Of a stretch of 64,000 bases of DNA, positions 7,790-61,074 are shown piece after piece (the first letter of the stretch is position 1; every line of letters starts with the position of its first letter). A model generated the notes under the pieces. It did no database searches. It saw nothing but the letters and a program-made list of their open reading frames with translations, and was not told the origin of the DNA. Source of the DNA: Stegostoma tigrinum (lineage: Eukaryota); NCBI RefSeq assembly GCF_030684315.1, contig NC_081382.1, positions 33,924,620 through 33,988,619 of the forward strand, read 5' to 3'. A program made the position numbers and the translations under genes.

Positions 7790-7975
7790 GAGAGATAGTA
7801 GGAACTGCTGATGCTGGAGAATCTGAGATAACACGGTGTGAAGCTGGATGAACACAGGCCAAGCAGCAGAGGAGCAGGACAGTTTTAAGAAGGGTCTTGA
7901 CCCGAAACATCAACTTTCCTGCTCCTCTGATGCTGCTTGGCCTACTGTGTTCATCCAGCTTCACACCATGTTATC
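7790..7975. mobile_element. Short fold-back PLE family A element
   Basis: Inverted arms gataacacggtgtgaagctggatgaacac / gtgttcatccagcttcacaccatgttatc; imperfect TSD ccacacacaa (7780-7789) / ccgcacacaa (7976-7985). Confidence 0.8.
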
Positions 7976-20880: not shown

Positions 20881-21778
20881 AGCTTTGAGGACTTGGAAAT
20901 ATAAATAAAAATAATATGGAAACGGTCTTAGATGAGTTAATATTTCATTGATAAGTTAGTTTTAAAGATTTGTCTAGAAATTACTTAAGATTATATTCTA
21001 AGTATAATACCATTGCTCAATTACTTTTTGTTTCAGGGAAGATCGAAGAAACTTCATGTTCCTAAAGTAATGGAACAATAGGTGTCATAAAATAAAAGAC
21101 CATACAAGAGCATTGAATGGAGTAGGATGATGGGTTGAACGGTTTTTATGCCTTTTGGATTTTCTTGTTAAATGATCTGCAAGTGTAGTAATCTTAAAAC
21201 CACAACTGTAAAACAAATGGTTGAGTAGGGTCAGCTTTGCACAATCTTATAAGCATTACAGATCTGGCAAGCACAAAGGAAACTAGATGTATCACATCAG
21301 CTGACTTGTGAACGATTCACTGAATTAGACAATCACCTGATGCAAGATTTCTAAAGATTACAAAACATGACTGAGGATTTTTAAAATATTTGATCAAGGG
21401 GTGTGGGTGCTGCTGGAACCCAGATCCCTAATTACCCTCGAGAAGGTTGTAGCGAGCTGCCTTCTTGAAGAACTGTTTTCAATTAAACATTTATGATATT
21501 GTCAGAAAAAGAAAATGTCTCAAGCACATAAGTGTGTTTCTTCAAGCAGAGCTCTGACACTTTTCTGTAGGCTTTCATGTTTGGTCAATATAATCAACTG
21601 CAAAACCACAATCACAACCAGTTGTATCTATTCAGCACCTTTTACAAAGTAGAAAGTTCCAATAGTATTTTAGACAGTGATCAGGGAAAGAGACAAAAGC
21701 TAAGTCAAAGGTTAATATAGATACAAAGATCAAATGATTGACGAAAAATGTACATTTTAAAAGGTCTTAAAGGAGGAT

Positions 21779-22000
21779 CTGAGATAACAAGGTGTAGAGC
21801 TGGATGAACACAATAGGCCAAGCAGCATCAGAGGACCGGGAAAGCTGACGTTTCGGGCCTAGACCCTTCTTCTGAAGAGTCTTTCTGAAGAAGGGTCTAG
21901 GCCCAAAACGTCAGCTTTCCCGCTCCTCCGATGCTGCTTGGCCTGCTGTGTTCATCCAGCTCTTCACCTTGTTATCTCAGATTCTGCAGTTCCTACATTC
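21779..22000. mobile_element. Short fold-back PLE family A element with 14-bp TSD
   Basis: TSD tcttaaaggaggat at 21765-21778 and 22001-22014; near-perfect ~95-bp inverted arms; axis at tcttctgaagagtctttctgaaga. Confidence 0.9.
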
Positions 22001-22126
22001 TCTTAAAGGAGGATATTGATTTCATCATTGAGGTGCAGTTACATCCACAGTGCTATTAGGGAGAGAGTTCTAGGATTTTGACTCAGTGACTTTGAAGGAG
22101 CCATAGCATAGTTTTCAATGACAGGA

Positions 22127-23400
22127 CAGTCAGAGTCATGCAGCACAGAAACACTGTTCAATCCAACCAGTCCACACCAAGCATAATCCCAAGCTAAACT
22201 CATCCTATCTGCCTTCTCCTGGCCCATATCCCTTCAAACCCTTCCTACTTATGTACTTATCCAAGTATCTTATAAATGTTGCAATTGTACCCATATCCAA
22301 CACTTCCTCAGGAAGTTCATTCCACACACCAACCACCCTATGTGTAAAAAGATTTGTCCCTCAAGTCTTTTTAAAAATCTCTCTCCTCTCACCTTGAAAA
22401 TGTGTCCCCTAGTTTTGAAATTCCCCCATCCTAGGGAAAAGAAACCTACAATTAACCCTTTCTATACCCCTCATAATTTTATAAACTTCTATAAATTCAC
22501 CTCTCAACCTCCTAAGCTCCAGTGAAAAAAGTCCATGCCTATCCAGCTTTTCTTTATAACACAAACTTTCTATACCCAGCAACATACTGGTAAATCTCTT
22601 CTGAATCCTCTCCAGTTTAATAATAACCTTCCTATAACTGGGCAGCCAGAATTAGACATAGTACTCCAGAACAGACCTCACCCATGTCCTGTACAACCTC
22701 AATATGACTTCACAACTCTGAAACTCAAAGGAATAAGCAATGAAGGCAAGCATGCTAAATGCCTTTTTAACTACCCTGTCTTTATGTGACACAAACTTCA
22801 AAGAATTATGTATCCGAACCGCTAGGTCCATCTGTTCTACAACATTACCGAAGGCCCTACCGTTAATTGTATAAGCCCTACTCTGGTTGTTGTGCCAAAA
22901 TGAAGTATCCCACATTTATCCAGGCTGAATTCCATCTGCCATTTTTCAGTCCATTGAACCGATTGATCAAGATCCCTTTGTAATCTTAGGAAACCTTCTT
23001 CACTGTCTGCTCTGCTACCAATTTTGGCGTCATCTACAAACTTACTAACCATGCCTTCTATATTCTCATCTAAGCCATTTGTAAAAATGGCAAACAAAAG
23101 AGGACTCCGAAGTGATCCCTGTGGAATGCCGTTGGTCACAGGTCTCTAGCCTGAAAAACAACATTCCTCCACACACTGTCTCCTGCTGTTAAGCCAATTA
23201 TGAATCCAATTGGCAAACTCCCCCGAATCCCATATGACCTAAATTTACAAGTTAGTCTGCCACACAGAACCCTGTCAAAGGCTCTACCAAAGTCCAAGTA
23301 AAAATGTCTACTGCTCTGCCATCATCAATCTTTTTGGTGACTTCGTCAAAAAATTGAATCAAGTTTGTGAGGCATGACTTTCCTCACACAAAGCCATGCT
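22127..23400 (-). mobile_element. CR1 LINE RT and 3' end
   Basis: ORF 22837-23139 GIPQGSLRSPLLFAIFTNGLD...SKFVDDAKIG; ORF 22652-22915 DLAVRIHNSLK...VRSVLEY. Confidence 0.9.
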
Positions 23401-23790
23401 CAGTCCAAGTTGAAGTGGGTGGTATTTCCATGTATTTACTGCCATTGTCTTAAAAAGTGAAGTTGGGGATTGGGGAGGTGCTTTCAAAGGAGCCAATGTA
23501 AAATGCTCCAGTGCATCTTGTAAATGGTACATAATGCCCATCACGATGTACCAGAGGAGGAGGGAGTGAGTGTTGAAGATGATGAACAGGGGTGTGCAAA
23601 ACAAGTGGACAGCTTTGTCCTGGATAGTGTCAAGCTTCTTCTGTTGTTGGAGCTGAATACAGCCAGGCAAGTTGAGGATATTTCATTACAAGCTTGCATT
23701 GTGTCTTGCAGATGGCAGACAGGCTGTATCAAGGCAAAAGGTGAGTTACTCACTAGATGATTCCCAGCCTGTGATCTGCTCTTGTAACCA
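23401..23790 (-). mobile_element. CR1-group LINE (second family) fragment
   Basis: KKLDTIQDKAVHL; homologous to 62040-62400. Confidence 0.7.
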
Positions 23791-24174
23791 CCTTTCCTAA
23801 GCCATATCAGGTGATCGGAGTTTCAAATTTGGTGCGTTTTACTACTACATGTAATCTCTGTCATAGTAAAGCATGATATAGTTGCAAGCTGCAAGTTTTT
23901 TGGAGCTGCTTTGTTTCACAAGTGTAATTACTGCATTAGAAAAATCTGTCACCTTCTATATGCTTTTGAAAGCTATTATTTAGAAAGAATGGATGACAGA
24001 GGATCAGAAAAGACCATTTGGTCCATATGATTCGTCTTAGACTTTACTATAAAAATCCAAATAATTTTCTCACTGCTCATTTCCAAAAACCACAGCTTGA
24101 AGTTATGTCTGATTTTTCTATACATCTTTCCCTCTGCTCCTTGTTATCACAGTTGACTCGTGAAATCAAGGTAA

Positions 24175-24240
24175 AGCTTTTGAGCTCCTAAGATGCTGCT
24201 TGGCCTGCTGTGTTCATCCAGATCCACACTTTGTTATCTC
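24175..24240 (+). mobile_element. 66-bp PLE family A fragment downstream of the hammerhead
   Basis: agcttttgagctcctaagatgctgcttggcctgctgtgttcatccag...gttatctc. Confidence 0.8.
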
Positions 24241-26101
24241 ATAATAGTTTATTTGAGCTCGTGTTAATCATATCAATTTTCAGTCTTATCCTCTACTTTA
24301 ACCAAAATTACTGTCTGCAGTTTCTTCTCATAGCTTAAATGTCCTATTTCCAGGTGTCAAACAGATGGTTTATTGTTTACTTTTCCCTTCAAATGCTTCG
24401 CTTCCTTTTCTTCCTGCAAAATGATAACCAAAACTCCAAACTGTATTCTAGATGGAGCTAAACCTCACTTTGCTAAGTGCAAAATACTTGTTTCATGCCA
24501 CCTGTCTATTTTAGAATTCTTTCGACAGTTGCATTTGAAGTATACAAATCATACATTACAGATTGCACTAAAACTAGCAGATGGCTGATCCTTATATTAC
24601 AAACAGAGATCATCAGCTGCACAAAAGTGCATGAAGTAACATTGACTAGTCAAAAATATATTTCATTCACATGGTAGGAGATCGATTTCTCTTAACACTG
24701 GTTCTGAATAAATAGATGACATTACCTCACATAAATTTAGTGCAGGACATGTCTGCAGGAATTGGATGTTTTGACAGCTTGGATTCAAGCAAATGTGTAA
24801 TCTTGACTGACTCAATATCCTCGTCAGTCAGTCTGTGCCAAGATGAATTTTTTTAACCTAATAAAATATTAAGCATTTATGGAATTACTAGAAAAAAAAT
24901 CTGTCCTGTGCACATCACAGTGTTATCTCCTACAGGGTCCATACATTCTACTGTAGGTGCTCTTCTTTGGTCAATATTACAACAATAACTTTTATCTATA
25001 TGGCACTTTTAACAATGAAGAAAATTCCAAAAGGTACTTCAATCAGACAGTTAAAAGGAAAGAAATGAAGGCTGAGTTAAAGGAGAATATACAAATGATG
25101 ATCAAACGTTTGAACAAAGATATGGATTTTAGACAAGGTCTTTAAAAAAAGTGCATTGAGTTAGAAAGATTTATCTAGCAAATTCCAGAGCATGGAGCAT
25201 AATTGACTAAAGGCACAACTTCAAATCATTGGGCTGAGGAAGCAAGGTTGCAGAGTCAAAGGAATATAAAGGCATTGGATGTGTTTCCAGTGCTGGCGAA
25301 ATTTATACCTTCAGAATTTTCATTGTTGTCAAGTGAAATAAATAGTGCAATGATTCTGACCGACCTCTGAAATGGTCACTTCATAAGTAATTATCAATGG
25401 GTTAACACAACATGATCTTTAGAATTAGAAGTAGATTTTATTGTCACATGTGGACTACCCATTCAGAGTGAAATGATTACTATGTAAAGAATATTAAATA
25501 TTGAAGTGAATAATCTGACATTCACTGATGATCAAGCTTAACATTTAGTTTAAAAATACATGGAAGTATAGTGACAACCAATCAGATCAATGTGCAGAAG
25601 GTACAGTACTAATTTAAAGAGTGTCTTATAATAGGGATGATGACCTACTATCTTTTTATATGTAAATATTATATGCACATGTCTGGACACACAACCAGGT
25701 CTATAATTTATTTATAAAGGTAACATTGACAATACCCAAGCGGCAAATTTGCATTGTAATTTTCCAACTTGACAATACTTCTTCAACAAATTAGGAGTGC
25801 ATCGAATTGTAAAGACCACTATGGTTCAATTGTCAGTTCAAATATAAAATGACACAACAGCTAGTTTATTTGCACTGTCTTCAGTTCTACACTCTATTAC
25901 ACCTTACCAAATATGGCAAAGTCAAATTTTACTTAAATTTGAAATTTATTGTGGTGAAGGTCGATGCTGTACATTATAATTGAAGTGAGACAGAAACAAC
26001 AATTAATAACGTGAACACGTTTACATTTCTAATTGATCTCATTAAGAAAATATAATGATACCAGTAACGTGATGGATAGAAACAGCAAAAAAAATTGAAA
26101 T

Positions 26102-27124
26102 CTCAAAATCCTAAATGAAACACAGTTTAATGTACATGTCGAAAAGAACTCCAAACAGATCAAAGCACATTCTTCTGTGAAGTCTTTCAGTTTGCCCCCT
26201 CACCAATTTCAGCCTTGTTCAGTACTATGAGGTAATTTATGCAACTAAAACCGGAGGGGGAATCTGTTACTACAGCAAAAGAACACAAATTCTGGAAATT
26301 TGAAATAGAAACAAAAACATACTGGAAATACTCAGTAACTAGGCAGCATGTGTGTTAAAAAAATGAATTTAATATTTCAGGCCAGCGACATTTCATTGGT
26401 TCTGATTTCCAACAGCTTTTCTTTCACAGGAAGTGTAACTGTCTCAGGTTTGGCTGTTGACTTCACTTTGGCCTCGTCCTCAAAAACTAAGGGAGTAACA
26501 GACCAACAGACTAGCTGTCCAACCTTTTTCTTTACATTGCAGGGAAGTCACATACCAGGCCATCCAAATCCAATATTTTTAATTGAATGGACTACATAAA
26601 TCCATACCATTCAGGGACATTAAATCACTTTAGCTTTAAAGATACAACACATTAAAAAAACTAGCAACAAATCTCAGCATAACTTTTTCAGATAAGTGTA
26701 ATATCTGAACCGACAACATAGTTACTTGTACTTGCATCTAAATATAGCTCATTTGCTTTATTAAGCAGTCTGTCAAGTATTCTAGCTAGCAGACACTACT
26801 TTGAAAATGAAGATCCAATATGAAGTTTGATTTGTTGGTGCGGCTGAAGATGGAGATTAGTTCTTTGCAGGATGCTGACTGATCCTACAAATCAACCCTG
26901 CCTGTATGTTTTGTTCCATAACTTATTATCTTTTCTCATGCTCCCTCAGCCTATATCACTTGCAATGACTCAAGTCACACTTTTAATGTTTGTTGATCAA
27001 GTGTTCTGTGTTTAGACAAAATAGCACACAAACACAGAGTACAGGAATAGGATTCAGCTGAATTCATAAACCATTCAAGTTGTATTTTTATGGCTCAAAA
27101 TCCTAAATGAAACACAGTTTAATG
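26102..27124 (+). repeat. Exact 31-bp dispersed direct repeat (26102-26132 and 27094-27124)
   Basis: ctcaaaatcctaaatgaaacacagtttaatg occurs twice, 992 bp apart. Confidence 0.85.
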
Positions 27125-27414
27125 CTTGATGCATTGTTCTTGACTCGTGCAAAAGTAGTTTTAAAGTCTTACGTCAATCTACATGTTAAGGAAAACTATA
27201 TAAATACTTGTTGTGCTTAACAGGGGATTTTTCTCTGTGCAAAAATTGAATTTCTCAGAATTTCTTTGTGAGCAGAAATTATTTCTAAATTCTGACGTTG
27301 ATCCTTAGATAGTTTTAGTTCAGCAATACACAAAAATGGCTGCATGCTTTCTAAAAGTTTTAATCTTTTCTCCCATTCTGTTCAGTGAATGATTTACACT
27401 TCCATCTCACTTAC

Positions 27415-27538
27415 CGTGTTGCTGGCTGTTATCTATACTCTGATGCTCTGTGTACCAGGCAGACAGCCCTCGGTGCTCGATCCCCACCAACTGTGGGCAC
27501 GTTGTACTCTCTCAGTGCCATAGGAGCAATTGCCAGTA
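27415..27538 (-). other. Putative 124-nt internal 5' UTR exon of the divergent gene
   Basis: - strand ctttctaattaattctgtctgtaaaatttcAG|TACTGG...AACACG|GTAAGT: branch-point-like CTAAT, acceptor, consensus donor; GC-richer than the flanks. Confidence 0.6.
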
Positions 27539-29262
27539 CTGAAATTTTACAGACAGAATTAATTAGAAAGCTGAATTACTTGACAATGTAGAATGTAAAG
27601 CAATTGGTCAAAGACTTTCAGTTGACCGCCATAGAAATTTGTACTTTATTCCAATACTCACTTGAAGCAACTCTCCCCACTCTGGCATTTTATTCCTGAT
27701 TCATGTTCATTAAAGCTCTCTATTAGATTCTTCAATAACATAATTTTAAATAGTGATAACTGTGAACTGCTATGATAGATTAGCATCAGTTGAAATTCAT
27801 CCACATTGTATACAGAGTTGGTGTGACACCATATAAACAGAACACAGGAGCAACACTGAGTCCCGTCTCAATTAGGTACTTCACAACAAGATGTCTATCA
27901 CCTGGCCATCTCAAAATTTATATCTAGAGGATTATTTCTACTTGAGAAATGCAAACCTGTAAGTGGCAATGTAAGGACCATACTGATTAACGGCTTCCAC
28001 TTGTAGACAATACTGAAACCGAGGAAGGATCTAAAGGATCGTACCATATTCGAAATTTTAACTCCGATTCGCTCACCATAGATGCTGTCAGACTTGCTGA
28101 GTACCATGCTTTCATTAGTGAAGTTTCCACATTGAAATTCATTAAGATTTTTCTACTGATATTTTGATCTCCCCCAACTTTATTTACAATATAGAAGTAA
28201 TTCATAAATTCTAATGCACATGAGACTGTTCTAAAATATCCTGAATTGTACCAAAATATTGGTTTCAGTGATGCAAACTACTGTCCAGCTCATAAGTCAT
28301 TAAATGCGAAGATAAGCTTTACCCCTTGGATTAACTGCTAAATTACAATAGTCATTTCCATAAATTTCGCCATTATATGAACTTCTGTCCCGAAAACTGA
28401 TCTTGACAAAAGACAAGAATGAAAAATGGCCCATTCAGTTCTTCAGAGTCACTGTCTATTGTATAGGTTCATTGAAAGTCATAAAATTAAATGGAGCAGG
28501 TAAATTATGGAAATTAAGTGATTGGAAAGAAAAAATACTCACATTCCATCGAAAATAAAACTATAATATTCAGCAAACATACAGGCAAAAAAGTATCTGA
28601 AATAATCAATAGCCTGCCTCCTCATAATAAACTTCTCATTCTGTTGATAAGCAGAACATGCACTGCACCTGTAGACATCAGCTCTGAAACAGAATTCAGC
28701 TTAACCCCGTCAGTTTTTTAAACTTTCTCCCCAGAAACTAAAATGGCAAACATCTCAGAGAAACTCACAATTCCACGTTATTTCAAAGGTACAGACTTAA
28801 TGACTCTGACCCTAGGAGCATTCTGATTTTATAGCTCAGACAATCTCTAAACTAGTGCTTCCCAAAAAGTTTCCTTTGCCCACAGTGAATCCCACTTAGG
28901 CTTGCAAAGAGTTGAGAACCCTAAGTGAGACTAGTGAAGACAGAATGGGCTAAAGTGGAGGGGAGGGGTCATATATAAATGAAGTCACGATTATGAGTTG
29001 CTTAGATCTCTGTGGTAGTCATTGCTGCTGGGGAGTTCACATTTTGGGAAATCGTTCTCTGGTCTGCTGGTTTGCTCGCAGCAACAGTGCTGAACTTGGC
29101 CACCGAAGATAAGATATTAGGAGGAGAAAAATCCAACCATTACTAGGTACACTGACTGTTACTATGACAGCAACAGGTGTGGACAAGATCTGCTTGAATG
29201 AACAATCACTGTCAAGATTTACATGTAAGTGTCATCTATGTGGACAAACTGCCATAAAACAA

Positions 29263-29486
29263 CGAGATAACAAGGTGTAGAGGTGGATGAACACAGCACG
29301 CCAAGCAGCATCAGAGGAGCAGGGAGGCTGACGTTTCGGGCCTACACACTTCTTCAGAAAATGAAGGAGGGTCTAGGCCCAAAACGTCAGCCTCCGTGCT
29401 CCTCTGACGCTGCTTGGCCTGCTGTGTTCATCCAGTTCTACACTTTGTTATCTCAGATTCTGCAGCATCTGCAGTTTCTACTATCT
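29263..29486. mobile_element. Short fold-back PLE family A element with 14-bp TSD
   Basis: TSD ctgccataaaacaa at 29249-29262 and 29487-29500; inverted arms; axis at cttcttcagaaaatgaaggag. Confidence 0.9.
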
Positions 29487-31869
29487 CTGCCATAAAACAA
29501 TTCCTGATTGGGGAATTGTGCTCCAGTTGCACAAATCAACACTTTCAAGAGTGGTGCTTTGGAAAGAAATTGTAAAGTAAAGCAATAATGTACGCAAGTA
29601 AGAAAACCAGCAGGATTCATCAACATACTTAGGACTACATTCTCACGAAACAACTGTTGCCTAAACTTTGAGATTGGGTACTTGGGATGAACTCGATATC
29701 AAAAACAAAAGACTCAGACTTTCTACACTAATTTTGTTAGAAAACTTAAAATTACATACTGTGTTTCATGCCTGTTTCAGGTATCCAGTTGATTTAAAAA
29801 ACCTCAGATAGCCAGAAATGGAAGAGATTCCAACAAACAGCACTTTTATGCTAATGCATCAATATCAGTAAGATTTATAATCTGCACCATTCTGTTTACA
29901 GACTTTTTGCGCAGTGTCAGTGTTGGGTTTATAATCAGAGTCTAGACTTTCAATCAAGGAAACACTGACCTTTGACAATTTCAAGTTCAACGTACGAAAC
30001 AGAAATGGGGATAAATTAGGTATTAAGATTGACTAACAATGGAGTCAATGATTAGACTTTAAAGAGAATATTAAATCAATATAGATTTCAAACTGAACAA
30101 TCTTAACCACAAAGATTAAATTCTGCGATGGATATACTTATAATTGTTTGGTCAATAGGTGCATTCCTCCAGTTTTTCATATCAGTTGAAAATTACATTA
30201 GGACACAAAAGGAGAAAGAGAGAACTTTAGTGGCTCCTATAAATTTGAAATAGGCAGACTAATGTAACATATTTGGGAGTAGGTAGTTTGTGGTTGCATT
30301 TTTACACTATTACAATTCTCAACCTCTTTTCTGCCATTCCCACTATTGACCCTGGAGGAAAACAAAAAGTACCTTTTCCAAGTTGCACAGTATAATTGAA
30401 GGTGCATGTTTATTCCTCATTCTTTCTATACGGTTCATAGATTTAATCACTAAATCTGTGAAATGGCAGTTATTTGGCAGTTTTTAAATGCCTGGCAAGT
30501 TCATAGAATTTCACATCAGCAGTAGTACAAACAGAATTACAAATTTAGAAAGAAAGAGAAATAATCATAAGTCAAAAGATTCACATCTATTAATAAGTAG
30601 CACTTGTGTTAAAGCATCTCGCATCTCCATTTTAAGCCTGCAAAATGGGTAAATAAACTAATGAGTTGTTCACAAGCCTCCATTATTTTTAAATTGCCTT
30701 CTGGGCAAATCATCACTCAGAGGTGCTCCTTTAAAAGATGTGGAAAAGGCTCCATTATAAAGGATATAACAAAAACCGAGGACGAATCACAATGGGAATC
30801 ACAATGTCAACCAAGTTACATCACATTCCTGTTGCTTTGGTATTATCCAACACCACATGCTGTGTTGGAAAACACTGCTGAAAAGAAAACTGGTGCTTTT
30901 GGCTCAATGGTGCACTTATCACCACTGCTCATCACACAGTGAATTATATTTGTATGAAACCATTGTTAAAAAGGACATGCTCACAAGGAGGCTGTCATAG
31001 GTCTATTCTGGTAATAAAGTAACAACTGTATGAAGAGCCAAAAACGGATAGACCTCCTTAACTATATTGCAACAAAAACAGATTGAAAGGATCCCGAATA
31101 CAAAAGGGAGAAAATAATCAAAGCTAAAAACAGTGGTGTTTTGAACTACCCAGAAGAATTTTAAAGCAAGTCAAAAGTCCAGTTCTACTGCTGAAATAAT
31201 AAAATTAAAAACTGTATACAAAGTAAAAGGACAGGATGGGTACTTGCTACGCCTCAAATGTTATTAGATCTCAGCTCCCAAGTCTGTCGTCAGATTCACT
31301 GCTACACACATCTTAGAACAATTGCAGGTGTAAATCTTGGCAATGGACTGCAACACAATAGGAAGAGTCCAGCCAGTTGATGAGAAGTTTTCAATAGAAC
31401 TTCCTTTCACATCAGACAGCATGACTGCCAAACGGCTCCAAACTCCACAATTTTTTGAATATTCTTAATCCCAACGCACAGCAAGATTTTGACTTTCAAT
31501 ACAGAACAAGGACATTTTAAAAGGATGTCAGTGAACCTTACCTTGAACTTATTGTTCTCGGATCTCTTGCACAATAGAGGCACTGTGGCCTCCATGTCTG
31601 CAGCCTCACCAAAATGGAAATATTAGAGTTTAAAAATAGTTTTCTTTTATAAAATGTGTTGTCTAAATATTTGTATATTAATCAGGAAAAATGGGACGTC
31701 AGAGTCCTAATTCAGTGTAGCTTTCAGCAAATTAGTTCCAATAGACAAAAAGGAATAACAAGTTAAGCCGACACATTTTGTCCATACTTCAAAAAACTGC
31801 AACTGCTCATAGATATGAGAGCAATAATATCTCACCCCATCTAAAGATGCACTCCTTTGTCACAAATGC

Positions 31870-32720
31870 AAACTCTCAAGAACAAAGGGGTGAGACATAG
31901 CAAATGGCAGACTATGTGGTAACAAGGCCTGGCGTGTGGGGTAGGGGGCTGGGATATGGGAGAGTTTAGGCCCTAGAATTAGTGAATTCAATATGGAGTC
32001 CAGAGGGCTGCAGGGTCCCGAGAACCCGATGGGTAACCATGCCTTGTTACCGCATAGCCTGCCATTACACACCCCCTGTTGTTAGTCACCAACAGTCCCC
32101 ATTAACAACTATTCACCCTCCCAGCCTGATCATTAGCAACTCCTTTGTCTGTCCAACTGCCTAGCTCCCTCTTTGGGCTCTATCCTATCATTTACTCCCA
32201 ACCCCACCCACCTCCCTGTTTCCTGCAAATAATGTGACATTTTCCCAACCACCAGGCCCAAAATGTTAGATAACAAAAAGTGTGGAGCTGGATGAACACA
32301 GCAGGCCAAGCAGCATCTCAGGAGCACAAAAGCTGACATTTTGGGCCCAGACCCTTCATCAGAGAGGGGGATGGTGAGAGGGTTCTGAAATAAATAGGGA
32401 GAGAGGGGGAGACAGACCAAAGATGGGTAGAGGAGAAGATAGGTGGAGAGGAGAGTATAGGTGGGGAGGTGATAGGTCAGTCCGGGGAGGACGGACACGT
32501 CAAGGAAGCGGGATGAGGTTGGTAGGTCGGAAATGCAGGTGCGGCTTGAGGTGGGAGGAGGGAATAGGTGAGAGGAAGAACAGGTTAGGGAGGCAGGGAC
32601 GAGGTGGGCTGGTTTTGTGATGCAGTAACTCTGTTTTCTCCTTCACTGATGCTGCCAGACCTGCTGAGCTTTTCCAGCAACTTTGTTTTTGTTCCTGATT
32701 TACAGCATCTGCAGTTCTTT
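31870..32720. mobile_element. Composite of PLE fragments: inverted family B-like piece (31870-32255), family A - strand 3' end (32268-32618), family B + strand 3' end (32620-32720)
   Basis: - strand GTLQPSGLHIEFTNSRA* (EN C-terminus) near 31970-32020; 31902-31931 is inverted at 32037-32067; family A UTR with hammerhead at ~32335-32362. Confidence 0.75.
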
Positions 32721-32734
32721 CAGATTTTAATGAC

Positions 32735-34370
32735 ATTTGGGGATTTGTTAATTGGGAAACTAGTCAGCGACCTCTGCAACTGTCAACATGACTCCAAGAT
32801 AGTATGTTGCGTCCTGAATGCCAGTTCACAGATGTCAAAGAACAACTGCAGGGAATTCTGAAGGAAGTGGGTGAACTGCCAGAGGTCATGGTTCACACTG
32901 GGACAAATGATGGGCAAACTGGCAGCTTAACAATCCTGATTGAAGGGTATTTAGATGATCTGGTGAAATAACTGCACAGAGTCCACTATCCACTTGATTT
33001 ACATTTGCATAGCACATGGAGTCTGACCAGCTAGCTCAGAGCCAGACCTGAGAGTGAGGAGACTCAGACTCCTGTTTACATGTCAGCTAAGGGTCTCTGA
33101 TTGGCACAGGTTAATAGGCCCAATTAGGGGTCCCACTCATCAAAATCCACCTGGTCAACCTCGCTCCAATCACTACATCAGAGTGAAAGTTAAAAATACA
33201 AAAGGGGCAAACACACAATTGGGCATGTATTATAGACCCACCTCCCCCAAACAGTGAGATAGAGGATAAAATATGCAAACAAAATGTCAGAGAAACAGAA
33301 AAATAATAAGGCAATAATAACAGGAAATTTTTAACTACCCAAATATTAACTAGGATAGTTTTATAATGCGAGTTAAGGTGTGAGCAAAGTTGTTAAACTG
33401 GATTCAGGAGCAATAAGAGAGTGGGCAGGTCTAGACCTAATATTCAGAATTATATCCAGGCAAATGGAAAGCAGTAACCATAAGTCAATAACATTTAGGA
33501 TTGTTATGGATAAGGATGAGGCAGGAATAAGTGTTCTAAACTGGCAAAGGTTAATTCAACTAAGATAAGATACAATTCAGCCCAAGTGGACCAGGAGCAG
33601 CTACTTGCAATAAAACTGAGTCAGGGCAGTGGAATGCATTCAAGGAAGAAACAGCGGAAGTTTAGGGCAAGTATATTCCTGTAAAGACAAAGAGTGGACT
33701 CAATACTAGAGAACTATGGACATCAATACACATAAAAGTCATGATTAAGTGAAAGAAAAAGCTAAGGGCTCAATGCAGCAATGCACCTAGAGGTGTATAT
33801 TAGGTATGCAAGGGAGAAACTTAAAAGAGGAAATTGGGCAAGCTAACAGGACATGAGAAAGCAAAGATGGGTAGGATTTTTTTTAAAATACAAAGAGCAA
33901 CAGACTAACTATGGAAAGAGTACAGTTCACTAGCAATCATAGAGGTAAGCTGTCTATGGACCCAGAATACGTGGTAACAGTTCTCAATGAATTCTTTGCA
34001 ATGATGTTCAAAATGGAAATGGACATCATGGGTACAGAGATCAGGTGGAGGACTGCGAAATATTTGAAGAAATTAACGGACAGAGGCAGGTTTAGCAGCC
34101 TTTAAGAAAGTGGATAAATGTGTGGGTGTATTCCAGGTTACTGAGTGAGGCAGGGGTTAAGCTATCTGGGGCCTGAGGTGCTAGGGTCTCTTGAACACCT
34201 CAAAAAAATCAAATTTGTCAAAGGTGACATTCCCTTAACATATCCATGCTGACTATCCATGTCTCCAAGTGAAGATACATTCGGTGTCTCGGAAGTCTTT
34301 TTAATATCCCCACCATTGAGGTTGCATTTAATAGCCTCTAATTTCCTGGTCCATCCTTTCTTTGTCATTT
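32735..34370 (+). mobile_element. Decayed CR1 (ORF1 esterase, APE endonuclease, linker), split by a solo LTR
   Basis: GDLLIG...DSKIVCCV..EVMVHTGTND (SGNH esterase); LGMYYRP; VLNEFFA. The last ~170 bp are inverted. Confidence 0.7.
32964..33177 (-). mobile_element. Gypsy-type solo LTR related to the 55940-59659 provirus LTRs
   Basis: - strand TGTAGTGATT...GAGGT...ATTAACCTG..CCAATCA...GTTATTTCA; same termini as 59438-59659. Confidence 0.8.
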
Positions 34371-34549
34371 TTTAAAAACCTTCTGCATGGTCCTCTGAGG
34401 TTCCCGACTGATATTCAGTTTTGGAAGTTATTACCAATGAGTTGACACACTGATTGGTGTACACAGATCCTCAGAGTGGCTGTGCAGCCACAGAGCTTGG
34501 ATGGAGCTTGTCTGGATATCTCCTCCCTTGCTTTCCTCAGCAGACTCAA

Positions 34550-34780
34550 AGAGTCACAGAGTTAAACACCATGGAAACAAACCCTTTGGTCCAACTCACC
34601 TATGTTGACTAGGATTCCCAAACTAAACTAGTCCCATTTGTCTCTGTTTGGCTCATATCCCTGTAAACCTTTTCTATCTATGTACCTGTCAAAACATATT
34701 CTAAATGTGGTATCTGTCCCTGCATCTACCACTTCCTCTGACAGTTCATTCCATTCACACACGACCCACTGTGAAAAGGT
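34550..34780 (-). mobile_element. CR1 3'-end fragment
   Basis: FSQWVVCEWNELSEEVVDAGT CR1 C-terminal motif. Confidence 0.8.
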
Positions 34781-35004
34781 TGTACAAGCTTGATTTTCTA
34801 TTTTTAAATAGTATGATTGACACAAATTTACAGATCTCCAATTATTTTTCCTATCTCCATCAGTTACCACATTTAAAAAAGCACCTGTGTAAATATTAGA
34901 GTACATCTCATGAAAAGAACATACAAGACAAACTGTGAAACACTCACATAAAAGTAAAAATCTAAAATTAAAATAAAACAAGCAAATGATGTAACGATCA
35001 ACAG

Positions 35005-35216
35005 AGATAATGGGAACTGCAGATGCTGGAGAATTCCAAGATAATAAAATGTGAGGCTGGATGAACACAGCAGGCCAAGCAGCATCTCAGGAGCACAAAA
35101 GCTGACGTTTCGGGCCTAGACCATCAGATGAAGGGTCTAGGCCCGAAACGTCAGCTTTTGTGCTCCTGAGATGCTGCTTGGCCTGCTGTGTTCATCCAGC
35201 CTCACATTTTATTATC
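35005..35216. mobile_element. Young short fold-back PLE family A element with 13-bp TSD
   Basis: TSD taacgatcaacag (34992-35004) / taacaatcaacag (35217-35229); ~83-bp apparently perfect inverted arms; axis ccatcagatgaaggg. Confidence 0.92.
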
Positions 35217-35734
35217 TAACAATCAACAGGTTTGGCAGCTTCTTTGGAGAGAGTAATTCAGTTAATGTGTTGAGTTGAATATGTCTCTCATTCAAGTCGG
35301 ATGACTTTTTCAGAAGAAGTCAGATTTCACTTGAAACACTAACTTTTTCTGTTCCCACATATGGTGACAGACTATTTTTAAGAAAAATACGTATGACTGA
35401 CCCAAATTACAACCAGAAGCAGTTAACTGTAATTTTCTTCCACTGACTCTCACTTAAATCAAAGATCTCTTCCCTATATCTGGTTTTATCCAAAAGACAG
35501 TGCTGAAAACATCACTGGTTATTCATCATGCGTTCAAGAAGGGAATCTATTGCCAGTATGTTATCAAAATAAGTAGCCTGGGACATATCTCATTCCAGCC
35601 TGTGGATTTCTCCATTTTTGAGGCTGCTAACCATGCTGGCATCTTCTCACTCTCTGTTAATTTCCTCTAATATTTCACAGCCCTTTATCTTGATATCTAT
35701 ACCTTTAGCATTGTGAAGACTGGCACAAAGTATT

Positions 35735-39712: not shown

Positions 39713-41925
39713 TGACGTTTCGGGCCGAGACCCTTCATCAGAGAGGGGGATGGGGTGAGGGTTCTGGAATAAATAGGGAGAGAGGGAGAGGCGGACCGAA
39801 CATGGAGAGAAAAGAAGATAGGTGGAGAGGAGAGTATAGGTGGGGACGTAGGGAGGGGATAGGTCAGTCCAGGGAAGACGGACAGGTCAAGGAGGTGGGA
39901 TGAGGTTAGTAGGTAGGAGATGGAGGTGCGGCTTGGGGTGGGAGAGAGGAAGAACAGGTTAGGGAGGCAGAGACAGGCTGGACTGGTTTTGGGATGCAGT
40001 GGGTGGAGGGGAAGAGCTGGGCTGGTTGTGTGGTGCAGTGGGGGGAGGGGACGAACTGGGCTGGTTTTGGGATGCGGTGGGGGAAGGGGAGATTTTGAAG
40101 CTGGTGAAGTCCACATTGATACCATTGGGCCGCAGGGTTCCCAAGCGGAATATGAGTTGCTGTTCCTGCAACCTTCGGGTGGCATCATTGTGGCACTGCA
40201 GGAGGCCCATGATGGACATGTCATCTAAAGAATGGGAGGGGGAGTGGAAATGGTTTGCGACTGGGAGGTGCAGTTGTTTATTACGAACTGAGCGGAGGTG
40301 TTCTGCAAAGCGGTCCCCAAGCCTCCGCTTGGTTTCCCCAATGTAGAGGAAGCCACACCGGGTACAATGGATACAGTATACCACATTGGCAGATGTGCAG
40401 GTGAACCTCTGCTTAATATGGAAAGTCATCTTGGAGCCTGGGATAGGGGTGAGAGAGGAGGTGCGGGGGCAAGTGTAGCATTTCCTGCGGTTGCAGGGGA
40501 AGGTGCCGGGTGTGGTGGGGTTGGAGAGCAGTGTGGAGCGAACAAGGGAGTCACGGAGAGAGTGGTCTCTCCAGAAAGCAGACAGGGGTGGGGATGGAAA
40601 AATGTCTTGGGTGGTGGGGTCGGATTGTAGATGGCGGAAGTGTCGGAGAATGATGCGTTGTATCCGGAGGTTGGTAGGGTGGTGTGTGAGAACGAGGGAG
40701 ATCCTCTTTGGGCGGTTGTGGCGGGGGCGGGGTGTGAGGGATGTGTTGCGGGAAATGCAGGAGACGTGGTCAAGGGCGTTCTCGACCACTGTGGGGGGAA
40801 AAGTTGTGTCCTTGAGGAACTTGGACATCTGGGATGTGTGGGAGTGGAATGCCTCATTGTGGGAGCAGATCAGATGCAGCGGAGGCGGAGGAATTGGGAA
40901 TAGGGGATGGAATTTTTGCAGGAGGGTGGGTGGGAGGAGGTATATTTTAGGTAGCTGTGAGAGTCGGTGGGCTTGAAATAAACAACCGGTTGGTGAAGTG
41001 GATGAACTGTTCGAGCTCCTCTGGGGAGCAAGAGGCGGTGCCGATACAGTCATCAATGTAACGGAGGAAGAGGTGGGGTTTGGGGCCTGTGTATGTGTGG
41101 AAGAGGGACTGTTCCACATAACCTACAAACAGGCAGGCATAGCTGGGGCCCATGCAGGCACCCATGGCCACCCCCTTTGTCTGTAGGAAGTGGGAGGAAT
41201 TGAAGGAGAAGTTGTTGAGGGTGAGGACGGGTTTGGCTAGGTGGATGAGGGTGTCGGTGGAGGGGGACTGGTCGGGCCTGCAGGACAGGAAGAAGCGGAG
41301 TGCCTTGAGGCCATCTGCATGCGGAATACAGGTGTTTAGGGACTGGACGTCCATGGTGAAAATGAGGTGTTGGGGGCCAGGGAATTGGAAGTTCTGGAGG
41401 AGGTGGAGGGTGTGGGTGCTGTCACGGACATAGGTAGGGAGTTCCTGGACCAAAGGGGAGGAAATGGAGTCCAGATAGATGGAGATGAGTTCGTTGGGGC
41501 AGGAACAGGCTGAGACAATGGGTCGACCAGGGCAGGCAGGTTTGTGGATTTTGGGAAGGAGATAGAAGCGGGCCGTGCGGGGTTGGGGAACAGAGGTTGG
41601 AGGCTGTGGGTGGGAGGTCCCCTGAGGTGATGAGATCATGAATGGTGTTGGAGATGATGGTTTGGGGCTCAGGGGTGGGGACATGATCGAGGGGGCGGTA
41701 GGAGGAGGTGTCGGAGAGTTGGCGTTTGGCCTCGGCGATGTAGAGGTCAGTGTGCCATACTACCATTGCGCCACCCTTGTCTGCGGGTTTGATGGTGAGG
41801 TTGGGGTTGGAGCGGAGGCCTGCCCGTTCTGCAGGGGAGAGGTTGGAGTGGGTGAGGGGGGTGGAGAGGTTGAGGCGGTTCATGTCTCGACGGCAGTTGG
41901 AGACGAAGAGGTCGAGGGAGGGTGA
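39713..41925 (-). mobile_element. PLE family A, long arm of a large fold-back (RT + GIY-YIG, frameshifted)
   Basis: ORFs give IKPADKGGA, FYLLPKIHK..PGRPIVS, TMDVQSL, QTKGVAMG, LRYIDD (PLE RT) and VVYCIHC..LYIGET (EN). Confidence 0.95.
39714..39741 (-). ncRNA. Minimal hammerhead core
   Basis: - strand CTGATGA-agggtctcggccc-GAAA-cg-TC. Confidence 0.7.
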
Positions 41926-43367
41926 CCTCTCCAGCACATCCCTCACCCTCCTGGACCTCTCAGTCTCCATCTCAGGCAACCAGCTTGTAACTGATGTCCA
42001 TTTCAAGCCCACCGATTCCCACAGCTACCTAGAATACACCTCCTCCCACCCACCCTCCTGCAAAAATTCCATCCCCTATTCCCAATTCCTCCGCCTCTGC
42101 CACATCTGCTCCCACGATGAGGCATTGCACTCCCGCACATCCCAGATGTCCAAGTTCCTCAAGGACGCAACTTTCTCCCCACAGTGGTCGAGAACGCCCT
42201 TGACCGCGTCTCCTGCATTTCCCGCAACACATCCCTCACACCCCGCCCCCGCCACAACCGCCCAAAGAGGATCCCCCTCGTTCTCACACACCACCCCACC
42301 AACCTCCGGATACAACGCATCACCCTCCGACACTTTCGCCATCTACAATCCGACCCCACCACCCAAGACATTTTTCCATCCCCACCCTTGTCTGCTTTCC
42401 GGAGAGACCACTCTCCGTGACTCCCTTGTTCACTCCACACTGCCCTCCAACCCCACCGCACCCGGCACCTTCCCCTGCAACCGCAGGAAATGCTACACTT
42501 GCCCCCGCATCTCCTCCCTCACCCCTATCCCAGGCTCCAAGATGACTTTCCATATTAAGCAGAGGTTCACCTGCACATCTGCCAATGTGGTATACTGTAT
42601 CCATTGTACCCGGTGTGGCTTCCTCTACATTGGGGAAACCAAGCGGAGGCTTGGGGACTGCTTTGCAGAACACCTCTGCTCGGTTCGCGATAAACAACTG
42701 CACCTCCCAGTCGCGAACTATTTCCACTCCCCCTCCCATTCTTTAGATGACATGTCCATCATGGGCCTCCTGCAGTGCCACAATGATGCCACCCGAAGGT
42801 TGCAGGAACAGCAACTCATATTCCGCTTGGGAACCCTGCAGCCCAATGGTATCAATGTGGACTTCACCAGCTTCAAAATCTCCCCTTCCCCCACCGCATC
42901 CCAAAATCAGCCCAGTTCGTCCCCTCCCCCCACTGCACCACACAACCAGCCCAGCTCTTCCCCTCCACCCACTGCATCCCAAAACCAGTCCAACCTGTCT
43001 CTGCTTGCCTAACCTGTTCTTCCTCTCACCCATCCCTTCCTCCCACCCCAAGCCGCACCTCCATCTACCTACTAACCTCATCCCACCTCCTTGATCTGTC
43101 CGTCTTCCCTGGACTGACCTATCCCCTCCCTACGTCCCCACCTATACTCTCCTCTCCACCTATCTTCTTTTCTCTCCATGTTCGGTCCGCCTCTCCCTCT
43201 CTCCCTATTTATTCCAGAACCCTCACCCCATCCCCCTCTCTGATGAAGGGTCTCGGCCCGAAACGTCAGCTTTTGTGCTGCTGAGATGCTGCTGGGCCTG
43301 CTGTGTTCATCCAGCCTCACATTTTATTATTTTGGATTCTCCAGCATCTGCAGTTCCCATTATCTCT
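41926..43367 (+). mobile_element. PLE family A, inverted second arm (RT thumb + GIY-YIG + complete 3' end)
   Basis: LDLSVS...FKPTDSHSYLEYTSSHP...IPYSQFLRL; 42000-43268 is the near-exact reverse complement of 39713-40978. Confidence 0.95.
43240..43267 (+). ncRNA. Minimal hammerhead core, sense to the KYAT1 pre-mRNA
   Basis: CTGATGA-agggtctcggccc-GAAA-cg-TC. Confidence 0.72.
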
Positions 43368-44069
43368 GATACAAAATATTAAAGATATTCAGGATTCCAG
43401 TTAGCATCTAAAGATAACAGACAAATAGTGATATTTTTCCTGTGTTGCCTTCAGTCTGATAACAGCTATAAAGTCTGATTGAGTTATTTGAGGTCATTCA
43501 TGTAACAAAGTCATTTGTCAATCCAGTCAGTGGAGAAGAAGAAAGAAACCATTGTTGATTGTGAAGATTGATGACACTGAGAATCATGATTTCATCAGAG
43601 GAGAATTTAGTGATACAAGACTCCATTTTGTTGGATGGAAAGTAAAGTTCTAAAAAAATTATTCAGGTTATTGCAGTGGTTGAGATGGTTGACAAACTTA
43701 GCTGTATAATTTCTATCCACAGGTACTTTATTTGAAATTGGGTCATTGTTGCATGTCATAGTAAACGGCAGAAGTGTTGAAATAACTAAGTACAAGGTAT
43801 TTTTGCATAAGGTTAAAATGATATGTTAATAACAGCTTGTATTTATATTGTGTCTTTAAAGTAGAAAAACTGTTTGACGTGTGCGCTATTCCCTATTGGA
43901 GGCCAAAAATCAGCTGGCTGCATTCATTCCTCTTTTCAGGAAATAACGCTTCTTGATATTCAATATCAACTAATGATATAATACATAGGGTTCATTCTCT
44001 TCAGCTTTTTGTTGCATTATACCTTCATTTTTCATTCACTAATGTTCTGTCTGTTTATTACTTGTGTGT

Positions 44070-46961: not shown

Positions 46962-47146
46962 AATAACAGTGTGGAGCTGGAGGAACACAACAGGCCAGGC
47001 AGCATCAAAGGAACAGGAAAGTTGATGTTTCGGGTTGGGACCCTTCTTCAAGTGTTGCCTCTGATGTTGTCTGGCCTGCTGTGTTCCTCCAGCCCCACAC
47101 TATATGTTATCTCTGACTCCAGCATCGGCAGTTCTTACTATCTCTG
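46962..47146. mobile_element. Short fold-back PLE family A-related element with 14-bp TSD
   Basis: TSD agcaaggcagttgt (46948-46961) / agcaaggtagttgt (47147-47160); inverted arms. Confidence 0.85.
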
Positions 47147-50274: not shown

Positions 50275-51312
50275 TAGCGAGTTTTGAGACGATTTGTAGC
50301 TCAGGTTGAGGTTTTGGATGTGAGTTTGCTCGCTGAGCTGGAAGGTTAGTTTTCAGAAGTTTCGTCACCATTCTAGGTAACATCATCAGTGAGCCTCCGA
50401 AGCGCTGGTGTTATGTCCCACTTTCTATTTATCTGGTTAGGTTTCCTTGGGTTGGTGATGTCATTTCCTGTGTTGGTGATGTCATTTCCTGTTCTTTTTC
50501 TCAGGGGATGGTAGATTGGTTCCACATCAGTGTGTTTGTTGATGGAATTCCGGCTGGAATGCCATGCTTCTAGGAATTCTCGTGCGTGTCTCTGTTTGGC
50601 TTGTCCTAGGATGGATGTGTTGTCCCAATCAAAGTGGTGTCCTTCTTCATCTGTATGTAAGGATACGAGTGATAGTGGGTCATGTCGTTTTGTGGCTAGT
50701 TGATGTTCATGTATCCTGGTGGCTAGCTTTCTGCCAGTTTGTCCAATGTAGTGTTTGTCACAGTTCTTGCAAGGTATTTTGTAGATGATGAACTTAATGA
50801 ACTAATGAACTTAAAAGACCCTATACAGACAACAAACAAAACGAACGTCATCTACAAAATACCTTGCAAGAACTGTGACAAACACTACATTGGACAAACT
50901 GGCAGAAAGCTAGCCACCAGGATACATGAACATCAACTAGCCACAAAACGACATGACCCACTATCACTCGTATCCTTACATGCAGATGAGGAAGGACACC
51001 ACTTTGATTGGGACAACACATCCATCCTAGGACAAGCCAAACAGAGACACGCACGAGAATTCCTAGAAGCATGGCATTCCAGCCGGAACTCCATCAACAA
51101 ACACATTGATTTGGAGCCCATCTACCATCCCCTGAGAAAAAGAACAGGAAATGACACCACCAACGCAGGAAATGACATCACCAACCCAAGGAAACCTAAC
51201 CAGATAAATAGAAAGCAGGACATAACACCAGCGCTTCGTCGGAGGCTCACTGATGATGTTACCTAGAATGGTGACGAAACGTCTGAAAACTAACCTTCCA
51301 GCTCAGCGAGCA
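50275..51312. mobile_element. Fold-back PLE family C (GIY-YIG on both strands) with 15-bp TSD
   Basis: TSD aactgacaaattgac at 50260-50274 and 51313-51327; + arm ORF TNVIYKIPCKNCDKHYIGQTGRKLATRIHEH; - arm 50275-50790 is its reverse complement. Confidence 0.95.
51250..51283 (+). ncRNA. Minimal hammerhead core (PLE family C)
   Basis: tca-CTGATGA-t-gttacc-tagaat-ggtgac-GAAA-cg-TC-tga: 6-bp stem II, 3-bp stem I. The antisense-arm copy (50356-50389) has GAAACTTC. Confidence 0.8.
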
Positions 51313-51483
51313 AACTGACAAATTGACCTTTATATGCAACAAGAATAACTAAAGTATGTTTTATTTTTAATCACGCTATATAAATTAGAATTTTAAACTA
51401 TTCTATAAGACTTTATTGACTAAAAAGATATTTTTGCAAACTAATGGGTCATTTCTTGTACCACCTGACTGAACTAATGTTAA

Positions 51484-51685
51484 TAAAAGCAAAATACTTT
51501 GGATGCTGGAGATTTGAAATACAAACAGATAATGCTGGAGAAACTTAACAGGTTTAGCAAATTCTGTGGAGAGAGAAACAGCTTTGAAATTTTGAGTCCA
51601 ATTAGACTTAAAACTTTAACTGAGTTTCTGTCTGCACAGATGCTGCTAGACTTGTTAAGTTTCTCCAGCACTTCCTATTTTTATT
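51484..51685. mobile_element. Old short fold-back PLE family B element
   Basis: gctggagaaacttaacagg / cttgttaagtttctccagc arms; TSD aactaatgttaa (51472-51483) / aactgatattaa (51686-51697). Confidence 0.75.
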
Positions 51686-51792
51686 AACTGATATTAAACC
51701 TTCTACATATTAGATTCAGTAAAAAAAGTGTTACATCAGTCCTCACACACAGTTCTCTTTTATTCTTTCTCACTTCTTCCACCCCTTCCCAG

Positions 51793-59747: not shown

Positions 59748-60529
59748 ATAATAAAATGTGAGGCTGGATGAACACAGCAGGCCAAGCAGCATCTCAGGAG
59801 CACAAAAGCTGACGTTTCGGGCCTAGACCCTTCATCAGAGAGGGGGATGGGGAGAGGGAACTGGAATAAATAGGGAGAGAGGAGGAGGCGGACCGAAGAT
59901 GGAGAGTAGAGAAGATAGGTGGAGAGAGTGTAGGTGGGGAGGTAGGGAGGGGATAGGTCAGTCCAGGGAAGACGGACAGGTCAAGGAGGTGGGATGAGGT
60001 TAGTAGGTAGCTGGGGGTGCGGCTTGGGGTGGGAGGAAGGGATGGGTGAGAGGAAGAACCGGTTAGGGAGGCAGAGACAGGTTGGACTGGTTTTGGGATG
60101 CAGTGGGTGGGGGGGAAGAGCTGGGCTGGTTGTGTGGTGCAGTGGGGGGAGGGGACGAACTGGGCTGGTTTAGGGATGCAGTAGGGGAAGGGGAGATTTT
60201 GAAACTGGTGAAGTCCACATTGATACCATATGGCTGCAGGGTTCCCAGGTGGAATATGAGTTGCTGTTCCTGCAACCTTAGGGTGGCATCATTGTGGCAG
60301 TGCAGGAGGCCCATGATGGACATGTCATCAAGAGAATGGGAGGGGGAGTGGAAATGTTTTGCGACTGGGAGGTGCAGTTGTTTGTTGCGAACTGAGCGGA
60401 GGTGTTCTGCAAAGCGGTCCCCAAGCCTCCGCTTTTCTGCAAAGCGGTCCCCAAGCCTCCGCTTCTGTGTTCATCCAGCCTCACATTTTATTATCTTGGA
60501 ATTCTCCAGCATCTGCAGTTCCCATTATC
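59748..60529 (-). mobile_element. PLE family A, - strand 3' part with an inverted 65-bp terminal piece, 14-bp TSD
   Basis: TSD tcatataaactcag at 59734-59747 and 60530-60543; hammerhead core at 59811-59838 (-); 30-bp tandem duplication at 60405-60464. Confidence 0.92.
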
Positions 60530-61074
60530 TCATATAAACTCAGTATTAGTGTCTTGTTGGCAGCTGGGTTTTAGTGCAGCAGTTAGTAACAAAACCTTTA
60601 TCATAGCACCACCTACAGGTATTATAAGAACATTTGAATGAATTTTTTTTCACATCCTTCCTCTGATTTTGATTTTTCCTGAAGCAAATGAGCAATGAAA
60701 TACTGCATTTTCTGCAAAACATTGCTGATGTGTTGATACTTGATAGAAAATTGTAAGTTCTGCAGTGTGCATCACATTAGTTACCCAGAATAGAATATGA
60801 AACTCAGGACAACTCAGTGCCTGATTCAAAAATAGAAAGGCATCACAACAACTTCTGACACAGTTGCCTATCTTTATCACCTGAATGTAAAAAGGCAGTT
60901 GCTGCTATACAACGACAGAAATTGTAAGAAAGAGAGAAAGGTGAAGAAATTAATGCTATCCAGTTATCTGTCTGGAGAGAACTAGGTTTATTGCTTTGCT
61001 CATTATACGGAGATGATATGGCCTTAGGCACATGGTGATACAAGTTTAGCAACACTATAAATAACAGCAGACCT

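Follow-up and report, generated by a model that had tools for sequence, protein, structure and literature searches.

Insertions of endonuclease-bearing Penelope-like elements (EN+ PLEs) have been described as carrying an inverted, 5′-truncated copy of the pseudo-long terminal repeat (pLTR) and a 30–40 bp tail at one side (Arkhipova et al., 2013, PMC3846280; Craig et al., 2021, PMC8557442), and both Craig et al. (2021) and Frangieh et al. (2024, PMC11167929) state that the origin of the inverted and tandem ends is unresolved. In PAc, a Poseidon element of Anolis, the protein nicks and extends both target strands in vitro, initiating at two internal sites that bound the tail (Frangieh et al., 2024). 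Metazoan PLEs also contain minimal hammerhead ribozymes, some as dual motifs 100–700 bp apart on opposite strands and many as single motifs from truncated copies (Cervera and de la Pena, 2014, PMC4209133). These papers, like those on retrozymes and on miniature inverted-repeat transposable elements (MITEs) cited below, are drawn on here for part of their text. Here we analyse short palindromes in a 64,000 nt stretch of the Stegostoma tigrinum genome (assembly GCF_030684315.1, contig NC_081382.1, positions 33,924,620 to 33,988,619, forward strand; hereafter the window). A preliminary description had named six of them, ~200 bp long and MITE-like, with their axis on the CUGANGA core of a hammerhead. 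We find that each of the six joins two PLE 3′ ends (pLTRs) head to head, the parent elements encoding a reverse transcriptase (RT) and a GIY-YIG endonuclease in the family of five of them and putatively also in that of the sixth, and their 5′ ends bear on how such elements are copied.

Positions are given relative to the C of the CTGANGA (CUGANGA) box, which is 43240 of the window in the reference copy; the predicted hammerhead cut is at +27|+28. Self-BLAST of the window recovers all six named palindromes and two more (51518–51685 and a 1 kb palindrome at 50319–51320). Longer copies in the window, whose open reading frame (ORF) pieces bear RT and GIY-YIG signatures, have a 3′ end that matches the arms. 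The RVT_1 and GIY-YIG matches come from adjacent pieces of one broken copy, and both score under the Pfam curated cut-offs because the ORF copies are broken; the endonuclease motif is visible in window copies, and at locus L194 a pLTR copy continues into an N-terminal ORF of 518 aa. Family A, comprising a young subfamily A1 and an older A2, thus has the features of an EN+ PLE: an RT with a C-terminal GIY-YIG endonuclease, a pLTR with partial tandems and an inverted 5′ copy, a one-sided tail of 30–40 bp, and a minimal hammerhead in the pLTR whose cleavage is predicted only. A Cys-rich linker between RT and endonuclease is present in family A and absent from the fragment of family D; a Zn-finger-like linker at this place is, along with placement in an RT phylogeny, a criterion for the Neptune clade (Craig et al., 2021), of which family A is a candidate member.

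For counts beyond the window, 148 unselected 10 kb stretches at round coordinates were taken from the 3.2 Gb assembly (1.48 Mb), and hammerheads were detected by a motif pattern scan with a check of stem II (130 matches in 1.48 Mb). Short family A palindromes number 53 in this sample, or ~1.1 × 10⁵ genome-wide if extrapolated. The 3′ ends of family A are bimodal, at +89/90 and +124 to +132, and among 98 head-to-head pairs (68 from the random stretches, the remainder from searched loci and the window) the PLE tail is present on exactly one arm in 90, with one arm ending at ~+90 and its partner at ~+128. Target-site duplications (TSDs) of 12–20 bp flank 38 of 47 young pairs, as against none in three swapped-flank control sets, and all 57 long TSDs are distinct. 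The junction strings quoted in the preliminary description are present in the sequence; all 43 strings of short palindromes are distinct, so that there is no master copy, in agreement with the independent formation that had been proposed from the letters alone. The retroelement origin proposed there is supported by the TSDs of 12–20 bp and by arms that are PLE 3′ ends. Families B and C, putative EN+ PLEs, also have the hammerhead, the TATA-like box, two 3′ ends and head-to-head pairs.

The head-to-head architecture is continuous from 120 bp to >1 kb, and the palindromes are the known PLE insertion unit, with its inverted truncated copy and one-sided tail, shrunk to its ends; they are not a new class of mobile element. 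They share with published EN+ PLE insertions the head-to-head inverted copy, the junction palindrome, the tail at one end, the long and variable TSD, and TATA and initiator-like motifs in the pLTR (Arkhipova et al., 2013; Craig et al., 2021). Unlike the insertions described in those texts, they consist mostly of two pLTR stubs with their 5′ ends piled at one site, and the asymmetry of their arms favours two primers over self-priming. With non-LTR retrozymes (LTR, long terminal repeat), they have in common a short, non-coding, PLE-derived sequence, a type I hammerhead and long TSDs; the retrozymes, however, are head-to-tail tandem repeats that give circular RNA (Cervera and de la Pena, 2020, PMC7229834; Li et al., 2026, bioRxiv 10.64898/2026.07.22.740005), whereas the palindromes are head to head, each unique, are not amplified as units and lack a TATA box. 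The suggestion that they form a non-autonomous retrozyme-like class is therefore not upheld. Tandem units are found instead in two separate arrays, L071:6760–8434 and L086:4977–6183, which consist of internally deleted PLE units (~445 and ~301 bp, respectively), each with a hammerhead and the first codons of the ORF and part of them inverted; such multimers are retrozyme-like and are what would be expected of a circular RNA template.

Do the arms end at the hammerhead core more often than chance allows? In the six named elements they do start near the CTGA(T/A)GA box, though at 7791 and 46963 this holds for one arm of the two (Table 1). Among 122 young A1 arms (true 3′ end, identity at least 88%, 15 censored), 44 start at −8 to +9, a hazard of 0.030 per nt at risk, where ~2 would be expected from the upstream rate (~20-fold excess). 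That rate rests on 40 starts in the 990 nt upstream of the hotspot, with a hazard of 0–0.003 per nt; A2 copies mapped onto the A1 reference were left out of the estimate. To control for artefacts of the reference we used a second A1 copy, with which 47 of 129 arms fall in the hotspot, and family-specific references. Of the copies found by searching, 26 of 29 in family B start at −9 to +1 and 21 of 29 in family C, that of the 62686 element, at −9 to +6, with similar behaviour in the random sample; the searched copies were the best 30 of thousands of candidates, and because the query begins at the core their upstream ends are unselected and their downstream ends unsampled. A second peak lies just 3′ of the predicted cut, where 12 young A1 arms start at +27 to +39 (0.008 per nt, ~2 expected from the upstream rate); it also stands above its flanking windows (p 5e-4).

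The clustering claimed in the preliminary description thus lies far above chance, but it is not peculiar to palindromes. Twenty of the 44 hotspot arms are unpaired, and unpaired arms alone give a hazard of 0.023 at the hotspot against 0.0006–0.003 upstream; the hotspot is therefore common to all short copies, and palindromes inherit it. Axes also lie far upstream, both arms starting beyond −150 in 8 of 27 young random pairs, and those of the 51518 and 50319 palindromes are off the core. Where copies run from pLTR into ORF, the 5′ pLTR begins at −4 to +3 in seven and at +33 to +38 in three of 28 distinct places (three loci counting as one place). Such ORF-reaching copies, with the same 5′ ends as the stubs, and the excess at the hotspot bear out one of the two origins offered earlier, a template RNA with its 5′ end at the core. 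Tandem units restart at matching positions (−2/−2, −1/−1, +2/+4, +3/+2, +33/+28, +38/+41, −175/−185 and −68/−68), at the hotspot, at the cut and at arbitrary sites alike, a pattern expected of synthesis that reaches a physical 5′ end of the RNA and then jumps. No report of a PLE 5′-end hotspot at a start site or ribozyme cut was found in the literature, subscription papers and the supplementary figures of Frangieh et al. (2024), including the genomic coverage of their Fig. S2, not being covered.

A1, A2, B, C and D each have a TATA-like box ~30 nt ahead of their hotspot (shuffle p 0.008–0.054 each), and in long copies of A1, A2, B and C it precedes by 29–31 nt an initiator match (Inr or TCT type; consensus from PMC5580651) at the 5′ edge of the hotspot. 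The A1 match is of the TCT, ribosomal-protein-like type (L049; window 43206–43241), while older A2 copies have an Inr match at the same position with the same TATA-like box. For family D, whose TATA-like box is at −47, a hotspot near −15 was predicted in writing before the copies were fetched. They were retrieved with a longer query, as a short one gave no match; 39 were fetched, 38 scored (one had no core match), and 15 of these were censored. None of the 23 uncensored starts falls at −8 to +1; four are at −17 to −12, and partner arms start at −17, −17 and −15. On this evidence we regard transcription initiation as the likely cause of the hotspot. A splice acceptor was considered and rejected, there being no AG before the start and no common upstream exon.

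Several points weigh against transcription initiation. For A1, A2, B and C the TATA boxes had already been seen when the start positions were read, and because of this, and because A1 and A2 are related, a combined p is no clean test. A2 has a better TATA match at −297. The family D numbers are small, six of the 23 starts lie at −46 to −54, on the TATA-like box itself, no clear Inr was found in this family, and a predicted hairpin likewise has its 5′ edge at −17. In Drosophila virilis the Penelope start is TATA-less and is separated from the hammerhead, which lies downstream, by 46 nt and a 75 nt intron (PMC2377424; Cervera and de la Pena, 2014). The −46 to −54 ends belong to six copies (L278, L282, L297, L299, L302 and L303) with scrambled, duplicated junctions on the AT-rich box, and possibly mark an endonuclease cut site or a microhomology trap.

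If the hotspot is not a start site, it could be a processing boundary, at which a 5′-to-3′ exonuclease that trims longer or read-through RNA is blocked by the folded or protein-bound hammerhead, the route of insertion being unchanged. The ends lie 2–5 nt 5′ of helix I in A1, B and C, those at −17 in family D coincide with the hairpin edge just mentioned, and the PAc protein is reported to bind the first 172 nt of its ORF and to assist the ribozyme (Frangieh et al., 2024). Counts of cap-derived extra G before the hotspot did not decide the matter: A1 arms have 17 of 41 against 10.5 expected, a count confounded by the partner arm, and ‘solo’ copies of four families have 10 of 23 non-C, a set contaminated by long copies. 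Four contig sets, two of them presumably from RNA, cannot show starts; X3 and X4 include 292 and 393 contigs with heterogeneous loose ends before −1, but these may come from the assembly's own sample. Minimum free energy folding of the 135 nt pLTR revealed no special stability (z −0.27). What exonuclease trimming leaves unexplained is a TATA-like box 30 nt upstream, with initiator matches, in families whose upstream sequences are unrelated. As the cause of the hotspot we judge blocking of an exonuclease unlikely, if a serious contender, and as a complete alternative account of the palindromes a little less likely again.

The two arms of a palindrome appear to share a template. Among 32 young pairs, arms of one pair are closer to each other than to permuted partners (0.029 versus 0.044) and share more rare variants (8 versus 0.8), and the closeness holds in all three age classes; among far-upstream pairs, 5 of 20 end no more than 15 nt apart, where 1.1 would be expected (p 0.003). 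Shared variants, closeness and matched far ends together argue for one template, although the similarity could stem from gene conversion and the asymmetry of some arms from later deletions at the centre. How the second arm is primed is a separate matter. In the antisense-template self-priming model of Arkhipova et al. (2013), the first complementary DNA (cDNA) would fold back and prime its own second arm, which accounts for identical arms and near-symmetric ends; it would also suit the overlap or microhomology at 19 of 50 young junctions, the others being blunt (11) or having filler (20). Folding back nevertheless requires the tail on the longer-reaching arm, and 20 of 28 asymmetric pairs carry it on the arm that extends less far in the 5′ direction (p 0.036, even when tested against 50:50). 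Some arms abut at ~+90 without overlap, such as +83 to +130 with −2 to +90 in L076, and cannot be fold-backs, and the hotspot, common to solo copies, is left unexplained. Self-priming is thus improbable as the general route, somewhat more so than exonuclease trimming, but may still make some symmetric palindromes. All cases are compatible with two primers acting on one RNA, the one at +128 trailing the one at +90.

RT meets an RNA fold from its 3′ side. The other origin offered in the preliminary description, that the 5′ edge of the ribozyme fold is where cDNA synthesis stops, does agree with the coincidence of the hotspot and helix I in families A and B, but a fold blocks RT at its 3′ edge, the ends track a TATA-like box ~30 nt upstream, family D has no starts at the core, and tandem units restart at matching positions even at arbitrary sites, as expected of a physical RNA end. 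PLE endonucleases do cut their own AT-rich pLTR DNA (Frangieh et al., 2024), so that an endonuclease could instead cut the cDNA there; either form of this explanation is very unlikely. A self-propagating short element, whether a DNA-transposon MITE or a retrozyme-like master palindrome, is refuted for family A, since the size, inverted-repeat hairpin shape and abundance that liken the palindromes to MITEs (Goubert et al., 2022, PMC8969392) go with neither a shared master nor a fixed short TSD, and their ends are the +90 and +128 termini of a retroelement, not matching terminal inverted repeats, in a continuum with kb-long head-to-head insertions.

We therefore favour, as the probable though not secure account of these sequences, that the palindromes are dead, one-off PLE insertion products, in which both target ends prime one RNA and the cDNAs run off its 5′ end, likely a transcription start just before the hammerhead. 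RNA polymerase II would start ~4–7 nt upstream of the CUGANGA box, 30 nt after the TATA box of the pLTR. RT would initiate internally, on either nicked strand, at +90 and ~+128, as another PLE does in vitro and as the two 3′ ends seen here match; because initiation is internal, it could occur in the 5′ pLTR of the RNA and would there yield a run-off cDNA of 95–135 nt. One productive primer would leave a solo stub; with two, the cDNA 3′ ends would be joined head to head by blunt ends, microhomology or filler, so that the axis would mark the RNA 5′ end. Staggered target cuts give the 12–20 bp TSDs, hammerhead-cut RNAs would give the smaller peak at +28 to +38, and the stubs, having no TATA box, would not act as sources.

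Such a step is akin to retroviral minus-strand strong-stop synthesis, in which a short, internally primed cDNA runs off at the 5′ end of the RNA, and to LINE-1 twin priming, in which two target ends prime one RNA. It differs from both in that the arms usually copy the same stretch, the internal priming sites are fixed, and there is no poly(A) or tRNA primer. PAc is alike in its two initiation sites bounding the tail, in the nicking and extension of both target strands, and in a run-off length set by the template 5′ end; it is a Poseidon-clade element studied in vitro, and the text describes neither a 5′-end hotspot nor head-to-head joining (Frangieh et al., 2024). In that study, moreover, RNA-seq gave no reads at the hammerhead cut and cleavage was not required, which counts against a role for cut RNA and stands in contrast to the genomic peak just 3′ of the cut found here. 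The motif has the architecture of the minimal hammerheads of metazoan PLEs, whose copy ends are not mapped to motif or start site in the text of Cervera and de la Pena (2014).

Table 1. Palindromes and related PLE features of the window. Arm positions are relative to the core; self-BLAST limits are in brackets.
Feature	Window position	Strand	Arms or relative position	TSD and remarks
Palindrome, A2	7791–7975 (7827–7975)		left +31 to +128; right +5 to +92	candidate 13 bp, 2 mismatches; left arm begins just 3′ of the ribozyme cut
Head-to-head palindrome, older subfamily A2	21779–22000 (21774–21985)		left −2; right −3, tail	~14–15 bp, 21765–21778 / 22001–22014
Head-to-head palindrome, A2	29264–29489 (29264–29454)		left −3 to +94; right +1 to +129, tail	15 bp
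Head-to-head palindrome, young subfamily A1	35002–35216 (35039–35217)		left +9 to +128, tail; right −1 to +90	13 bp
Broken A1 copy, RT and GIY-YIG pieces	39713–41759	−	3′ end at +28, the ribozyme cut	RVT_1 E 8e-5, GIY-YIG E 1e-3
5′-truncated A1 copy (reference)	42172–43371	+		endonuclease region, 3′ untranslated region, pLTR, tail
TATA-like box of reference copy	43206–43213	+	−34	top TATAWAWR match in 300 nt upstream, 6/8
TCT-type initiator match YC+1TYTYY	43235–43241	+	predicted +1 at 43236 (−4)	consensus PMC5580651
Minimal type I hammerhead motif	43238–43269	+	core from 43240; predicted cut 43267|43268	architecture as in PMC4209133
Palindrome, A2	46963–47146 (46968–47101)		left +1 to +91; right +41 to +129	14 bp
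1 kb head-to-head palindrome, family D (Penelope/Poseidon-like)	50319–51320		axis within endonuclease coding region	hammerhead 51250–51283; TATA-like box at −47
Decayed palindrome, family B	51485–51696 (51518–51685)		+16 / +22	no TSD found; absent from the preliminary description
Long asymmetric head-to-head A1 insertion	59748–60531		−599 to +90; +58 to +126, tail	15 bp; architecture as in short ones, axis far from core
Head-to-head palindrome, family C (hammerhead-bearing)	62686–62869 (62702–62869)		left ~−1; right +5	weak candidate 11 bp, 1 mismatch; left start read by eye, script cutting at assumed midpoint gave +6

Other structures accompany these. By eye, the A1 copy that ends at +28 (window 39713–39741, minus strand) appears to run on into the 3′ part of a family B pLTR, a junction that is possibly a template jump onto hammerhead-cut RNA; L204 likewise ends at +29, and two of the nine internal 3′ ends listed are of this kind. 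Two long divergent A1 copies (window 39959–43012) form a large inverted structure with arms at 39935–40801 and 42172–43036 that are 96% complementary. At L186:2628–3077 both arms start from −1, with the tail on one and a 19 bp TSD, and are separated by a 230 bp spacer without a match to the family A references, which is either captured DNA or a later insertion at the axis. A rare tail-to-tail pair of A1 ends (L043:1138–1367) probably represents two neighbouring insertions. An Rfam scan gave no hammerhead family match and only sub-threshold microRNA (miRNA) hairpins, from palindromes at window 7846–7956, 46970–47099 and 50706–50929; false miRNA calls are thus likely to arise from the palindromes.

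Both the type of insertion and the hammerhead motif were already known; new here are the TATA spacing in five families, in one of which it was used for a prediction made beforehand, the restart of tandem units at the same position, and the test of arm asymmetry against folding back. The stubs constrain how PLEs are copied, in respect of the site at which the RNA starts, the derivation of both arms from a single template and the usual trailing of the tail arm, and they suggest that a share of templates begins at the ribozyme cut, which RNA-seq did not show for PAc (Frangieh et al., 2024). By extrapolation from family A alone, ~10⁵ MITE-looking hairpins in this genome are by-products of retroelements, some of them with weak matches to miRNA families. 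We put forward as a tentative proposal, for which the chances seem slightly short of even, that PLEs replicate through a strong-stop-like step, with internal priming in the 5′ pLTR from both nicks, run-off at a capped TATA/Inr start or a hammerhead-cut end, and then a join or a jump. If so, the inverted pLTR, the tail at one side and the promoter-restoring partial tandems would all follow from that single step, and the ~10⁵ stubs would amount to a fossil map of PLE start sites across the genome and would testify to cutting by minimal hammerheads in the germ line. The palindromes would then be a fossil record of how these poorly understood retroelements copy themselves.

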